Source of the DNA: a bacterium
GTDB lineage: Bacteria > Zhuqueibacterota > Zhuqueibacteria > Residuimicrobiales > Krinioviventaceae
Length of the DNA stretch: 64,000 nt
Assembly: GCA_963674595.2 (NCBI GenBank)
Contig: CAXXFV010000027.1
Span: forward strand, 32,001 to 96,000
Reading direction: 5' to 3'
Shown here: one piece after another, positions 50,757 through 58,412 of the stretch
How the letters are laid out: each line of letters begins with the position of its first letter
Numbering within the stretch: the first letter of the stretch is position 1
Notes under the pieces: model-generated
The model's input: the letters and a program-made list of their open reading frames with translations, nothing else
Database searches by the model: none
What the model was told of the DNA's origin: nothing
Position numbers and translations under genes: made by a program

Positions 50757-51387
50757 TTATTTAATGCTTTCCCGAACCAGGGCAACAACTTTTCCCTGAA
50801 TGGTCCATTCGTCTGTCGGATGAATATCCGGATATTCTGCGTTTTCCGCCTTTAGGTACGCATGGGCGCCGTCTTTTTGTGCAAGCCGTTTTACCGTCGT
50901 TTCACTTCCACCAATCAGAGCAACCACAATGTCACCCCAATTGGCCGTATTTTGTGACCGCACAATAACCAGGTCCTCGTCCAGGATGCCCGCATTTTTC
51001 ATACTTTCTCCCTGCACGCGCAGTAAAAAATGCCGGTCTCCGGAACGGACCAAATAACGCGGTACGGCAATCTCCCGTTCAATTGTTTTCTTCAGCCAGC
51101 ATGGGAAGTCCGGCGGTAACAGCGCCTACAAGCGGCAAACTGATCTTGCTTTCTTCAATGCCCGGCGTTTCATAAGAATTCATCAGTTTTATGCCTCTGG
51201 CCTTGTTTTTTTCCCAAACAATAAAGCCTTTTTTGGCCAGGGCCGTTAAATGTTTCACCGACGAATTTTGAGAGGATACTCCCAACTCTTTTGCCAATTC
51301 CTTTAACGTTGGTGGATATCCTCGATCACTTATCAATTTGGAAATAATATCCAAAACTGTTTTCTGACGTTGTGTTAGTTTTTTCAT
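50757..51387 (-). CDS. lexA: LexA repressor (one indel near 51082)
   Basis: LTQRQ...GYPPTLKEL wHTH, VTAGLP Ala-Gly cleavage site, GESM (Ser), TVKRL (Lys). Confidence 0.93.
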
Positions 51388-51396
51388 GCAGTTCTC

Positions 51397-51426
51397 ATAA
51401 AAGGTGTAATTATATCCACCTTTTAT
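51397..51426. promoter_or_regulatory. Palindromic operator candidate upstream of lexA
   Basis: ATAAAAGGTG-N10-CACCTTTTAT perfect 10-bp arms. Confidence 0.6.
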
Positions 51427-51453
51427 TGTACAAATTCCCCAGGAAAAAGTCAA
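51425..51453 (-). promoter_or_regulatory. sigma70-type lexA promoter
   Basis: Minus strand TTGACT-N17-TACAAT. Confidence 0.7.
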
Positions 51454-52753: not shown

Positions 52754-54168
<1,415 letters not shown>

Positions 54169-54231: not shown

Positions 54232-55371
54232 CTATTCTGCCACTTTTATTAAAAGTTGTTTAATGAGTTTTGCCTGTTTAAATTCCTCGTCTTCAATTCC
54301 AAGTTTTTTCAACAATGGTGGTGGCGCCAGTCGATATGTCAATGTCGTTTCCAGATAAACGACATTAGAATCCGGTATCAAGTATGTTAAGAGCCGTTTT
54401 TCATCTGGAAGCAGGCGTTGGTCAAATTTTTCCGTAACAGCTTCCCAGGGGGGAACCGGGGCATCACCGTTTTCATTTGCCAAAAGTTTCATAAATATTG
54501 CCTGGGGATCTTCTTTTATTGGATTGATATAGTAATTTTTCCAGACCGGATTTTTGTCAGCATCCTGCGCTTCAATATTAAAAATTACCATTCGCATCGG
54601 AGAACCGGTCGGCAGAGCATGCCCAACAGCGTGATTTTGAATTTCGACCGCCACATCCAAAAGACTGTCTTTTCGTACATACTTAACTTTAATGTCGGCG
54701 CAATTGGTTAAAATTTCATCTGAATAACCGCCAAAAAAGGAATGAGAATGGATTTCATCTCGGACTTTACCCAATGGTGCAGCTTTGCCTTCTTTGGAGG
54801 GCATGTGGCAATCCTGACAGGAAACACCCTGTCTGGCAAAACGGCTGTTCTCCCATTCTGATTTTGTTGAACAAAAGGAAATACCATGAGGATTTTTTTC
54901 ATTACCATGACAGGTAAAACAAAATTCCGAAGTCGTTATACTTGCCGAGAATTCAGATTCATGCACATTTGAAATAGGATCTTTAATTGGCCCGTATTTT
55001 AAATTACCGGGACCAAGTTGAATCCAGTCATAGTTATCCACAACAGCTAGTTGTGTTGCATGGCAAATATCACAGCTAACGCCCTGTTCAAAAACCGCTC
55101 TTGTTTGCTCCGTATCCGGAATCAAAGTTCTGGCAGGTTCATGACATTTACGACAGGTTTCATCCAGAGAATTTTGGGATGATTTATTGGCCCAGTCAAG
55201 CATTTTTTGGAAAAATACATTCTGTGCTTCGGATGAATGTGCATGGCGAGAACTTTTCCACTCGGTATATATTTGTTGATGACAATCACTGCACTCTTCC
55301 GCCGGACTAATTGTTTGAGACCACCCATTTTGAATAAATAAAGTTAATACCAGGAAAAAATAATTTCTCAT
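54232..55371 (-). CDS. Exported pentaheme c-type cytochrome (c554-like N-domain)
   Basis: Signal peptide; CSDCH, CRKCH, CDICH, CFTCH, CQDCH; GHALPTG. Confidence 0.88.
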   Translation of the reverse strand: MRNYFFLVLTLFIQNGWSQTISPAEECSDCHQQIYTEWKSSRHAHSSEAQNVFFQKMLDWANKSSQNSLDETCRKCHEPARTLIPDTEQTRAVFEQGVSCDICHATQLAVVDNYDWIQLGPGNLKYGPIKDPISNVHESEFSASITTSEFCFTCHGNEKNPHGISFCSTKSEWENSRFARQGVSCQDCHMPSKEGKAAPLGKVRDEIHSHSFFGGYSDEILTNCADIKVKYVRKDSLLDVAVEIQNHAVGHALPTGSPMRMVIFNIEAQDADKNPVWKNYYINPIKEDPQAIFMKLLANENGDAPVPPWEAVTEKFDQRLLPDEKRLLTYLIPDSNVVYLETTLTYRLAPPPLLKKLGIEDEEFKQAKLIKQLLIKVAE

Positions 55372-55568
55372 TCTTTCTCCTTGTTAACTTTTTTCTTGCC
55401 CCCTCCTACTGTTAAAATAAAACCAATAACAGCACCATAGCCTGTGCTGATATAACCATTAGATGTAATCGGACACGTACCGGATTGACAGCCGATAAAA
55501 TGATAATAGGCGTATCCCAATAAAGCTCCAATGACAATGCCGAGAGCTAATTTCAAATATTTATTCAT
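55368..55568 (-). CDS. DUF6132-like small membrane protein
   Basis: GYAYYHFIGCQSGTCPITS between two TM helices; stop overlaps cytochrome start. Confidence 0.85.
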   Translation of the reverse strand: MNKYLKLALGIVIGALLGYAYYHFIGCQSGTCPITSNGYISTGYGAVIGFILTVGGGKKKVNKEKE

Positions 55569-55580
55569 ATATTACCTTTC

Positions 55581-56936
55581 TTACCTGCTGGCAACACTGG
55601 CAGCAATATGTATTGGGTCCCACATATTGTTAACAGCAGGCGTATATCCTAAATCAAGTTGTGCTAAATCATTTACAGTCATCTTTGCCGTAACGGCAGT
55701 GGCTAATATATTAATTCGTTGAGCAGCTTCCACTTTACCGCATATTTGTGCTCCCAAAACTTTATTTGATTTTTTATCATAAACCAACGTCAACGTCGTT
55801 TTTGAATCAGTATTCCCGATAAAAGGCGGACGGGCGTTTTGTGTTATTGTAACCTGTTCCGGAGAAAATCCGGAATCTTTGGCCTGATTGAACGACAATC
55901 CTGTTTTACCGACTTCCATGTCAAACAATCTGACCATTGACGTAGCAACAGAACCATTAAAAATTGAACGTTCACCGGCCGCATTACCTCCGGCAACCCG
56001 ACCTTGCCGTGCTGCAACACCGGCAAAAGGAATCCATTGGTTCTGACTGGTTACGATATTAGTTGTTTCACAACAATCACCGGCCGCATAAACATTCATG
56101 CGTTTTGTTTCCTGGTTTTTGTTAACGATAATAGCGCCGCCAGGACCCATTGGAATGCCCGCTTTTTTAGCAAGTTCCGTGTTTGGTTGCATGCCGGCAG
56201 CCAGAATCAAAACATCACATTCGACCTGCTGCTGATCCTCAAAATTTAATTGTCGAACGGAATTATTTTGTATTGCTGCATTAACTATTTTTTTGTTTAA
56301 CAGGATGTTAATACCGGAATTTTTCAAATGTTCAAAAATGTTATCCGCAATTTCTTTGGAAAAACCATCCAAAATCGAGTCTTTTTGTTCTATAACCGTT
56401 ACCTGCAATCCCCGATTGAGTAACGCTTCTGCAATTTCCAGTCCCAGATACCCACTGCCGACAATAACAGCTTTGCGGGGTTGTTTATTTAAAAAGGAAT
56501 TGAGATGTTCCGCGTCAGCAAAATTTCGAACAGTAAACATGTTGGCAGCATTTTCCGGGAAAACAGACGGAATAACAGGAACAGCACCGGTTGCAAAAAT
56601 CAATTTGTCATACTGATAGCTGTCAACACTGCCTGATGTCAAATTTTCAACCAGCACAGTCCGTTTAACAAGGCTAACTTCTTTTACACTGGAAGACAAA
56701 AGGACGTCATAGCCTCTTTTTTGTTTAACCGATTGAACATCATACCCGGAAACCTTGTCGGCTGAAAGCTGATTTGCCAGATAAAAAGGCAAACTACAGG
56801 AAGCATAACCAAAATGAGGTGATTTTTCTATGACAGTAACCTCGGCATCAGGATTAATACGTTTTGCTTTCCCGGCAGCAGCCAAACCGGCATCATTACC
56901 GCCTATAATCAATATTCTTTGTCGTTTTTTATACAA
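55581..56936 (-). CDS. CoA-disulfide reductase / NADH oxidase family flavoprotein
   Basis: GGNDAG, YASCSLP (single redox Cys), ATGA, GSGYLGLE, YAAGDC, LDLGYTP. Confidence 0.9.
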   Translation of the reverse strand: MYKKRQRILIIGGNDAGLAAAGKAKRINPDAEVTVIEKSPHFGYASCSLPFYLANQLSADKVSGYDVQSVKQKRGYDVLLSSSVKEVSLVKRTVLVENLTSGSVDSYQYDKLIFATGAVPVIPSVFPENAANMFTVRNFADAEHLNSFLNKQPRKAVIVGSGYLGLEIAEALLNRGLQVTVIEQKDSILDGFSKEIADNIFEHLKNSGINILLNKKIVNAAIQNNSVRQLNFEDQQQVECDVLILAAGMQPNTELAKKAGIPMGPGGAIIVNKNQETKRMNVYAAGDCCETTNIVTSQNQWIPFAGVAARQGRVAGGNAAGERSIFNGSVATSMVRLFDMEVGKTGLSFNQAKDSGFSPEQVTITQNARPPFIGNTDSKTTLTLVYDKKSNKVLGAQICGKVEAAQRINILATAVTAKMTVNDLAQLDLGYTPAVNNMWDPIHIAASVASR

Positions 56937-56969
56937 TGTTTACTCTCACAACTAAGCTTAATAAACCAG

Positions 56970-57000
56970 AAAAAGGCAAGTAACACATATTACTTGCCTT
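56970..57000 (-). terminator. Hairpin / probable terminator between FmdB gene and reductase
   Basis: Minus strand AAGGCAAGTAA-TATGTG-TTACTTGCCTT followed by TTTCT. Confidence 0.6.
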
Positions 57001-57068
57001 GCAAAAATATAAATATGGGGAATTAGAATCAAGCTAAAAATAAAGACATACAGTCTTTTTTATATTCC

Positions 57069-57284
57069 TCAGCCAAATCCGCTTGTTCCGCAACTGCCAC
57101 CGGACGAACCAGAAGAAACTGAAGCACTTCCTCCACTACCGCCTGATGCAAAAGCTGAAAATATTTTCTCGGGTTTTGCCGCACCACAAGCAGGGCAATT
57201 CAAGTTTGTTCCATCTTCACCAACCCGTTGAAAACTATCGAAAATATGCTGACACTCTATACATCGGTACTCATATATGGGCAT
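57069..57284 (-). CDS. FmdB-family zinc-ribbon protein (possible Sec readthrough to 57060)
   Basis: MPIYEYRCIEC...CPACG; G/S-rich tail ending SCGTSGFG-TGA-GGA-ATA-TAA. Confidence 0.9.
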   Translation of the reverse strand: MPIYEYRCIECQHIFDSFQRVGEDGTNLNCPACGAAKPEKIFSAFASGGSGGSASVSSGSSGGSCGTSGFG

Positions 57285-57286
57285 TT

Positions 57287-57457
57287 TTACTCTTTCTCCT
57301 TTTCTGAATCTAAATCCTGTACTTTATTTTTTTTCTTATCTTCACCCGGAAGATCACATGCACCGGACATTCAAGTAGGCACCCCAAATTTGGGTAAAAC
57401 AAATTTCATTAAAACAAACCACGCAATAAAAATTAATATTATACCTAGATTGTCCAT
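57287..57457 (-). CDS. Putative small membrane selenoprotein (56 aa, in-frame UGA at codon 29); absent from ORF track
   Basis: AAGGA RBS; MDNLGIILIFIAWFVLMKFVLPKFGVPT-U-MSGACDLPGEDKKKNKVQDLDSEKEKE; TAA 2 nt before FmdB ATG; hairpin after UGA. Confidence 0.7.
57338..57354 (-). other. SECIS-like hairpin
   Basis: AUCUUC-CGGGU-GAAGAU, loop starts 22 nt after UGA, G at loop position 2. Confidence 0.55.
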
Positions 57458-57518
57458 TCTGGTTCCTTGATATTTTTCATGTCCATTTATATTTTGATGC
57501 AATTAAAGGAAAAAGTAT

Positions 57519-58412
57519 TCAAAAAAGTTCAAAATTTTCATTATTTCCGACAGATTGCATGTGAGCAAGAGAGGGATAAAATCTTTTTAAATGGGCAGGC
57601 ACTATAGGAGGTTGCTGATAAAGCATTTCCTGGCATTCAAAACCATTAACAATGGCTTGTCCTTTAAAATGATTGTTAAAAACGACAAATGTTTGATTTG
57701 TTGTATTAGAAATTTCCCGGATGTTAGTTATCCAGTCTGTCATTTCATCTTTATTGTATAAATAATTATAACGTTCATCACGCCCGCTTTTTTCGTTAAA
57801 CCAGTTGGAATAGTTGCGTCCATGTAGTCTAACGTAACCGATATCAGAAGTGACGATTTTATCAGGTTTTACAGATTTACCGATGACAGGCTGATCAACA
57901 TTGACAAAACCTATTTTTTGTGACTCTAAGTATTTATAGATTTTTGAATCATTCCAGCTTGAATGCCGAAACTCCACGACCAGGGGAAAGTCAAATTGAT
58001 TTCGGATATTATCTATTTTTTCCAAAGAAGTTTTATTATTTTTAAAACTCCAGGGAAATTGCACCAAAACAGCCCCTAGTAAATTTGCTTTAGTCAGGAT
58101 AGAAAATATAATTTGAAAATCCTGAACATCAGATTCAGTCGGCTTTTCATTAGAATGAGTAAATTTTTGCCACAATTTGACTGTAAATTTAAACCGGTCG
58201 CTTCCTTTTACCAATGACACCCATCTTTCAATGGTCCCCGGATCAATTTTTCGATAAAAGGTAGAGTTAATTTCTACAAGATTAAAATAGTCCTTGAGAA
58301 ATTGCAGCTCGTTAAAATTTTTGGATCTTTTGGGAGGATAAACAATTCCATTCCAGTCTTTATAACTCCAGCCTGCCGGTCCGATATAAATATTTGATTT
58401 TTCGTCGCTCAT
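57519..58412 (-). CDS. DUF72 (YecE-like) protein
   Basis: GPAGWSYKDW, VEINSTFY, QFPWSF, EFRHSSW, YVRLHGRN, FNNH. Confidence 0.92.
   Translation of the reverse strand: MSDEKSNIYIGPAGWSYKDWNGIVYPPKRSKNFNELQFLKDYFNLVEINSTFYRKIDPGTIERWVSLVKGSDRFKFTVKLWQKFTHSNEKPTESDVQDFQIIFSILTKANLLGAVLVQFPWSFKNNKTSLEKIDNIRNQFDFPLVVEFRHSSWNDSKIYKYLESQKIGFVNVDQPVIGKSVKPDKIVTSDIGYVRLHGRNYSNWFNEKSGRDERYNYLYNKDEMTDWITNIREISNTTNQTFVVFNNHFKGQAIVNGFECQEMLYQQPPIVPAHLKRFYPSLAHMQSVGNNENFELF

Follow-up and report, generated by a model that had tools for sequence, protein, structure and literature searches.

A predicted 56-residue membrane selenoprotein and its FmdB-family neighbour, a probable second selenoprotein, in a Krinioviventaceae genome

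Here we examine a short minus-strand reading frame, interrupted by an in-frame TGA, in a 64,000-nucleotide (nt) stretch of bacterial DNA from the family Krinioviventaceae (assembly GCA_963674595.2, contig CAXXFV010000027.1, positions 32,001 to 96,000), which we call the window and number from its first letter. A first, sequence-only reading had proposed that this frame hides a small membrane selenoprotein, with selenocysteine (Sec, U) at the TGA and a selenocysteine insertion sequence (SECIS)-like hairpin behind it. From the comparison with relatives, we now consider it highly likely that the frame at 57457..57287 is one gene for a selenoprotein of 56 residues. The best explanation as a whole, a predicted selenoprotein with a probable Sec-containing partner and a thiol-site model, is one that we hold with good confidence. 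The small gene has the following features.

57287 to 57457, minus strand: gene for a predicted single-helix selenoprotein of 56 residues, TAA included (sequence and relatives)
57464 to 57468, minus strand: AAGGA, Shine-Dalgarno-like, 6 nt before the ATG (read in the sequence)
57371 to 57373, minus strand: UGA predicted to encode Sec, residue 29 (relatives and independent contigs)
57338 to 57354, minus strand: SECIS-like hairpin AUCUUC-CGGGU-GAAGAU inside the coding sequence, at codons D-L-P-G-E-D (covariation)

The gene starts at an ATG (57457-57455) and ends at a TAA (57289-57287), which leaves a gap of 2 nt to the ATG (57284) of a downstream FmdB-family gene. Its product reads, in order, MDNLG, a hydrophobic stretch of 17 residues, LPKFGVPT, the UGA, MSGAC, DLPGED and a tail rich in Lys, Glu and Asp. 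Most relatives also carry a GGAG- or AGGA-like motif upstream of the start. The parts described by the sequence-only reading are all in place: the AAGGA ribosome-binding site, helix, LPKFGVPT, TGA, MSGAC and charged tail, the 2-nt gap, and the hairpin AUCUUC/CGGGU/GAAGAU with its 22-nt spacing and a G at loop position 2. That gene callers would miss the gene is likewise borne out, as the two halves stand as separate open reading frames (ORFs) in the ORF listing, the first half, at 28 residues, lies under the usual gene-length thresholds, and the family has no Pfam or NCBIfam model. A selenoprotein of this build would be lost entirely to standard annotation.

Relatives, Sec machinery and hairpin of the small gene

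We searched 61 genomes from the same class in all six frames and matched the small gene in 54 of them, each at E ≤ 4.6e-5. In all but one of these the match holds a single in-frame TGA and extends past it to query residues 40-56; the exception (G009) has no in-frame stop, and its locus (L054) carries TGC, a cysteine (Cys) codon, at that place. We read 50 of the 54 loci, leaving out G031, G047, G059 and G060, and found the aligned position to be TGA in 49 (here called Sec forms) and TGC in the one Cys form. Across an alignment of 48 Sec forms and this Cys form (A2), P22, G25, T28, U29 and C34 are invariant, so that conservation is found on both sides of the UGA, and the codon of Cys34 varies synonymously between TGT and TGC. 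The frame after the UGA stays open for 17-40 codons in 49/49 Sec forms. As a control, frame +2 reaches 17 codons in 11/49, while frame +1 is long in 40/49, possibly by running into the FmdB gene, and is of little use for comparison.

The same family can be recognised well beyond the class. A profile built from the alignment gave 1,090 protein matches among 1.84 billion proteins (threshold E ≤ 0.001), and in the 41 matches whose Sec position was read it is Cys in 31 and tryptophan (Trp) in nine, the remaining one being cut off just before the position. The 31 Cys proteins share the motif LPxxG[VI]PTCMSGxC. A word-indexed protein search with the 56-residue reading as query had returned zero matches, a blank that we attribute to the search method, since the later profile search, which uses no word index, found the 1,090. 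The records with Trp at the Sec position (...PTWMSG...) are P0002, P0006, P0008, P0024, P0040, P0105, P0119, P0145 and P0150, some of which continue into downstream sequence. Trp at this position therefore points to a TGA called as W by a gene caller using another code, and the Sec of the small protein would thus be rendered as Trp in some public protein sets.

The genome from which the window derives (6.6 Mb, 37 contigs) encodes the machinery for Sec insertion, with selA at 574 bits, selB at 354 bits, selD at 389 bits and tRNA-Sec at 65.9 bits, all four above cut-off. Its selD gene (G000:C4:13190-14113, plus strand, locus L010) itself has one in-frame TGA, and SelD is probably a selenoprotein in this genome. 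The sequence-only reading had held that no genome-wide code change is at work. This stands: TGA is an ordinary stop in the window, where it terminates 8 of the 35 open frames of at least 250 codons, and it is the second, terminal stop in 14 of the 50 relatives of the small gene. A sequencing error, which that reading had named as an alternative, can be set aside on independent contigs. Those of runs X3, X5 and X6, from three other studies, differ from the stretch at 3-9 positions and in neither of its two TGA codons; the contig of run X1 is identical to the stretch, and the window may have been taken from it.

Structurally, the hairpin at 57354-57338 has its loop beginning 22 nt past the A of the UGA, with G as loop position 2. 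Its significance rests on the relatives, because folding energy alone does not single it out. A helix lies 19-36 nt past the UGA in all 49 Sec forms, is 6-8 base pairs long and carries a GG-containing loop, whose first G never varies and whose following G is conserved in at least 90%. The stem sequence varies while pairing is kept, as in GAUCUUC/GAAGAU, AUCUCC/GGAGAU, GUGUUCC/GGAACGC and CGUCUCCC/GGGAGACG. Counted on an ungapped alignment of 48 distinct relatives against 500 shuffles, paired cells amount to 82.6% (70.6 ± 1.1 in shuffles; 0/500 reach the observed value) and cells with a change on both sides number 51 (13 ± 3; 0/500). Controls in which the partner was slid by 1-3 columns retain the relatedness of the sequences, yet their pairing, at 40-62%, is far below that observed. 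With covariation in the stem and an invariant loop G, the SECIS-like character first proposed from one sequence holds across the family.

The hairpin also bears on a pattern in the peptide. DLPGED, whose codons it overlaps, is confined to Sec forms: L054, the Cys form of the class, lacks both DLPGED and a GG-loop hairpin at the equivalent place, where the residues of the database Cys forms are unrelated as well. As the peptide is restricted to Sec forms and coincides with the hairpin, we read its conservation as acting at the level of RNA; DLPGED is probably conserved for the RNA and not for the peptide. The functional core of the protein would then be LP-[KR]-x-G-[VI]-P-T-[U/C]-M-S-G-x-C.

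Two other accounts of the small gene were weighed. In the first, the UGA is a true stop, and a 28-residue membrane micropeptide is made together with a 27-residue MSGAC... peptide that arises by re-initiation at the UGA-AUG overlap. An AUG does follow the UGA directly in 44 of the 49 Sec forms, and the two pieces do appear as separate ORFs. However, the next codon is CUG, CUU or GUU in 5/49, and CUU (two loci) is no start codon. Further, the Cys forms, both L054 and the 31 of 41 database proteins, are one continuous protein, and re-initiation would leave the GG-loop hairpin and the Sec machinery without a role, so that we regard this account as very improbable. Less probable still is that the conservation past the UGA reflects a non-coding RNA element only, for instance one tuning FmdB translation: the overlap of the DLPGED codons with the hairpin, the loss of that peptide in Cys forms and the ordinary stability of the window hairpin would fit, but M-S-G-x-C lies between UGA and hairpin and is conserved with synonymous TGT/TGC change at Cys34, the same motif follows the Cys in Cys forms, and the frame stays open in 49/49.

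Some points weigh against reading the small gene as a selenoprotein gene, or limit how far its support can be pressed. The folding energy of the window hairpin is unremarkable (z = 0.12), with 102 of 200 shuffles equally stable, and an Rfam search of 56900-57600 at E ≤ 10 gave chance matches only, with none for bacterial SECIS among them. All the relatives belong to one class and share ancestry, which makes the counts non-independent; the shuffle controls are not probabilities, and selenium in either protein is a prediction from sequence comparison. Nevertheless, the aligned TGA or Cys, the conservation on both sides of it, the covarying hairpin and the Sec genes together support the selenoprotein that the sequence-only reading had proposed.

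The FmdB-family neighbour and its terminal TGA

The gene behind the small gene had been taken as an ordinary FmdB gene, a point on which we differ: its TGA and the fixed place of the stop behind it suggest that it probably has a Sec codon of its own. The features concerned are these.

57060 to 57284, minus strand: FmdB-family zinc-ribbon gene, read through its TGA to 74 residues ending in ...SCGTSGFG-U-G-I, stop TAA at 57062-57060 (TIGR02605, PF09723)
57069 to 57071, minus strand: codon that probably encodes a second Sec, FmdB residue 72 (TGA in 45/45 loci)
57042 to 57058, minus strand: SECIS-like hairpin AAAGAC-UGUAU-GUCUUU behind the FmdB stop (covariation)
56973 to 57000, minus strand: terminator-like hairpin and T run, likely end of the transcription unit (sole terminator-like site in 56900-57560)

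The protein passes the cut-offs of both of its family models (TIGR02605, 63 bits against 31.3; PF09723, 54.6 bits against 34.4), and the two CxxC pairs of its zinc ribbon (C8, C11, C30 and C33) are invariant. An FmdB gene lies directly downstream of the small gene on the same strand in 45 of the 50 loci. Its stop is TGA in all 45, following C-x(3-5)-G-F-[GST], whereas the terminal stops of the small gene are mixed (TAA 21, TAG 15, TGA 14). A second stop, which is TGA in 21, TAA in 14 and TAG in nine, comes after two codons in 41/45, after three in two loci and after one in a single locus; in locus L037 the FmdB tail is different. The residues encoded between the stops are G or A (40/41) and then S, I, F, V or G, with the third codon position free, such that Ala-Ser is written in nine hexamers and Gly in all four GGN codons. 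We take the FmdB TGA to be translated because the second stop stands at a fixed place and the codons between the stops change synonymously.

A second hairpin is consistent with this. Its loop begins 19-23 nt past the U of the UGA in 42/45 loci and has a G within its first two positions in 41/45, while a U-rich tail follows in only 1/45. Its mean z against shuffles is -2.07. On a MAFFT alignment, 75.8% of cells are paired (57.3 ± 2.0 in shuffles; 0/500) and 89 show a change on both sides (36.6 ± 6.3; 0/500), with slid controls at 39-53% paired. Taken together, these observations indicate that the FmdB gene is probably a second selenoprotein gene, in whose product a Gly/Ser-rich linker would join a zinc ribbon to a C-x(3-5)-G-F-x-U-x-x-stop tail.

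The competing account, in which the FmdB TGA is an ordinary stop, the hairpin a terminator or stabiliser and Sec confined to the small protein, is improbable in our view, although less so than those discussed for the small gene. Directly behind the window's own hairpin stands UUUAUUUUU; NCBI-sourced FmdB records finish at ...GF-x; and none of the 47 FmdB database matches read has a Cys exactly at the proposed Sec position, which also counts against our own assignment. Those 47 stop at ...GF-x or have other Cys-rich tails (...GGSC-x-x-C-G-H). On the other side, an ordinary stop does not account for TGA in every locus with a second stop of all three kinds two codons on, for synonymous variation in the two intervening codons, or for a loop G at fixed distance in a hairpin that so rarely has a U-rich tail, and the terminator-like site is placed further on, at 57000-56973.

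A pattern search of the genome itself for further ...GF-x-U-[GA]-x-stop tails gave nine against two in the control, with a real ORF only for FmdB. Among the known and new selenoproteins of the deep-Sep supplements we found no protein of the MPIYEY... type. Their Table S1 does hold a radical SAM selenoprotein (TIGR04167) with ...C-T-A-G-S-G-F-T-U-G-G..., which by eye resembles the FmdB tail C-G-S-G-G-F-T-U-G-x.

Comparison with known selenoprotein families

The family of the small protein is an already catalogued predicted selenoprotein and so is not new. By eye, the four catalogued entries share with it a short N-terminus, one hydrophobic helix and a short charged tail, as well as a motif ...LP-[KR]-LG-[VI]-x-T-U-[ML]-x-x-x-C... 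that is like its own. All but one have a length of about 50-60 residues, the fourth being printed with a long N-terminal extension. The window protein has the same build (about 50-60 residues, N-terminal helix, LP-[KR]-x-G-x-x-T-U-x(4)-C), and no feature that defines the family differs. Neither the Sec form nor six stand-alone Cys forms matched a model in Pfam or NCBIfam, and the family is absent from the available Table S1 of the cataloguing paper and from the 119-family table of a 2026 review (PMC13188914). A description or function of it was not found in the texts consulted, nor does it appear in the available passages of a 2022 review. Where the 'Geobacter lovleyi' label of the family comes from was not found in the full texts searched, including an ISME J 2016 paper, the 2022 review and the Global Ocean Sampling (GOS) paper. 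What is new here is the neighbouring FmdB protein with its probable C-terminal Sec, the retention of the pair in 45/50 loci, and the sulfur-redox context of the Cys relatives described below.

For the FmdB tail, the closest layout is that of UXX-star families 1 and 2 (NF041114 and NF041211), in which, according to the 2026 review, Sec is third from the C-terminus (PMC13188914, citing Haft & Tolstoy 2025), and the SECIS must therefore lie at or behind the stop. They resemble the FmdB gene in their U-x-x-stop arrangement, which we propose for 41/45 loci on the inferred Sec reading, but are glutaredoxin-like (NF041211 is gluta_UXX_star_2), whereas the FmdB protein combines a zinc ribbon with a Gly/Ser linker. 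In an NCBIfam scan the UXX-star models did not match four read-through FmdB proteins, and NF041211, whose cut-off is 100 bits, reaches no more than 16.9 bits in the window genome. An FmdB selenoprotein has been predicted before, in the GOS metagenome, as a putative regulatory protein of the FmdB family (TIGR02605 / COG2331) (Zhang & Gladyshev 2008, PMC2398784). As far as the consulted part of that paper goes, its Sec belongs to the zinc ribbon, at the first CxxC (U/CxxU), whereas the ribbon of the FmdB protein described here keeps all four Cys and its proposed Sec lies in the C-terminal tail. This N-terminal CxxC type is the only FmdB selenoprotein in the selenoprotein family tables compared. 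If our assignment is correct, the FmdB protein with C-terminal Sec would represent a new selenoprotein subfamily, truncated at ...GF-x by current annotation, and would add, together with the small protein, to the selenoprotein count in sulfate-reducer-like genomes.

A distant parallel for the small protein exists in eukaryotes. SELENOK and SELENOS are single-pass membrane proteins with a disordered, cytosolic, Sec-bearing tail. Their Sec is at the extreme C-terminus, that of the small protein beside the membrane, and no sequence relation is expected.

Gene neighbourhoods and possible function

To place the two proteins in context, we compared neighbours within about 1.5 kb at the 50 loci read in the class and within 4 kb at 61 loci of Cys forms. 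The latter come from Planctomycetota, Acidobacteriota, Myxococcales, Omnitrophota, Nitrospirota, Chloroflexota and Verrucomicrobia. In the window, three further genes flank the pair.

57519 to 58412, minus strand: DUF72 gene, upstream (PF01904, 179 bits)
55581 to 56936, minus strand: CoA-disulfide-reductase-like (CoADR-like) flavoprotein gene, downstream (TIGR03385 at 374.7 bits, below the cut-off of 578.8; PF07992)
55368 to 55568, minus strand: DUF6132 gene, small two-helix membrane protein with G-C-x-[ST]-G-x-C-P (PF19628)

All three recur in the class, with DUF72 upstream on the same strand in 25/50 loci, DUF6132 near the small gene in 28/50, its motif directly after the first helix, and the CoADR-like flavoprotein downstream in 11/50. 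A multiheme cytochrome c gene (window 54232-55371, minus strand) shares 4 nt with the end of the DUF6132 gene, and on account of this overlap the CoADR-like, DUF6132 and cytochrome genes look like one unit.

DUF6132 and the YgaP-like transmembrane domain (PF11127, DUF2892) resemble the small protein in being small membrane proteins with a Cys motif by a helix, encoded next to it. The C-x-[ST]-G-x-C of DUF6132 has the same spacing as the U-M-S-G-x-C of the small protein; in contrast, both of these families have two helices and the small protein one. Homology between the small protein and DUF6132 found no backing: there was no Pfam match, and hhalign gave a probability of 3.4% over a motif of only 12 columns.

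At the Cys-form loci the commonest of these neighbours is the YgaP-like transmembrane domain (31/61), followed by fusions of an MBL fold with rhodanese (persulfide-dioxygenase/rhodanese genes, 16/61), thioredoxin (15/61), CoADR-like proteins (7/61, all directly downstream), ArsR-type regulators (5/61) and DUF6132 (3/61). At least one of YgaP-like domain, MBL-rhodanese, thioredoxin, CoADR-like protein and DUF6132 is present in 40/61. One Cys form of 208 residues (P0106) is fused, or called fused, to thioredoxin (TIGR01068, 105.7 bits). Clusters for sulfide and persulfide detoxification usually contain MBL-rhodanese fusions, CoA-disulfide reductases, rhodanese-DUF2892 proteins and ArsR-type regulators. 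From these neighbourhoods it seems possible, and we suggest it tentatively, that at the membrane the family handles thiols, persulfides or related chalcogens or metals.

The charges around the helix give some indication of how the protein would be placed. Lys and Arg are absent before the helix in 47 of 49 sequences, and at least one stands just after it in 49/49. By the positive-inside rule, the tail with the Sec/Cys pair would therefore face the cytoplasm near the membrane. In the mechanism that we propose, SelB bearing Sec-tRNA would read the hairpin and insert Sec at UGA-29, and the N-terminal helix would serve as a membrane anchor with the tail on the cytoplasmic side. Sec29 and Cys34, a few residues from the inner membrane face, would form a selenol/thiol pair, which might cycle via a selenylsulfide or bind a single atom of sulfur, selenium or a soft metal. 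The flexible Cys/Sec tail of the soluble FmdB partner could then exchange with this membrane-anchored Sec/Cys site. The small protein may thus have a redox role, and our best guess, which we would not yet put at even chances, is that persulfide-type sulfur, or a related chalcogen, is accepted or reduced at a selenol/thiol site tethered to the membrane.

With a little more confidence, although still just short of even, we suggest that the pair forms a two-selenoprotein module. It would comprise the membrane U-x4-C protein and a translationally coupled FmdB protein with a C-x(3-5)-G-F-x-U-x-x arm, the two sites exchanging a selenylsulfide or handing an atom of sulfur, selenium or metal from one to the other between cytoplasm and membrane, with DUF6132 as third partner and the C-terminal-Sec FmdB proteins as a new subfamily. 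Speaking against the generality of such a module, FmdB is found near Cys forms in 0/61 loci, which confines the pairing to the Sec-form lineage. If the proposal is true, a module of this kind is undescribed in the inventories compared. The probable second Sec, the retention of the pair and the neighbours of the Cys relatives together offer a testable functional lead for two widespread families, the Cys-rich-tailed zinc ribbons of FmdB type and the small membrane proteins with LPxxGxPT[C/U]MSGxC.

The strongest competitor to a role in sulfur redox is that, in a stress or efflux response, a soft metal or metalloid such as Hg, Cu or As is bound by the Sec/Cys pair, which we judge unlikely, if less so than an ordinary stop in FmdB. 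The nearest conserved neighbour at many Cys-form loci is a zf-HC2 anti-sigma-like protein (21/61), and efflux genes are frequent (membrane-fusion protein 18/61, RND transporter 10/61). Metal or envelope stress fits these neighbours equally well, so that they tell against the sulfur proposal, and the ArsR-type regulators can be read in the same way. The consulted part of the 2026 review adds that Sec in several C-terminal-Sec families may be a metal ligand (PMC13188914). Yet the sulfur-linked neighbours together are commoner (40/61), and no metal-transport ATPase or mer gene was seen beside the Sec forms within 1.5 kb. A selenol/thiol site for persulfide-type sulfur or a related chalcogen therefore remains the reading that we prefer.

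Two further loci of the window are split between frames. LexA is found in two ORFs of different frames (51079-51453 and 50757-51053, minus strand), the DNA-binding domain in one and Peptidase_S24 in the other, as would result from a frameshift or a split gene. A GltD-like oxidoreductase (Fer4_20 and Pyr_redox_2) extends over two overlapping ORFs, likewise in different frames (52754-53551 and 53497-54168, plus strand).

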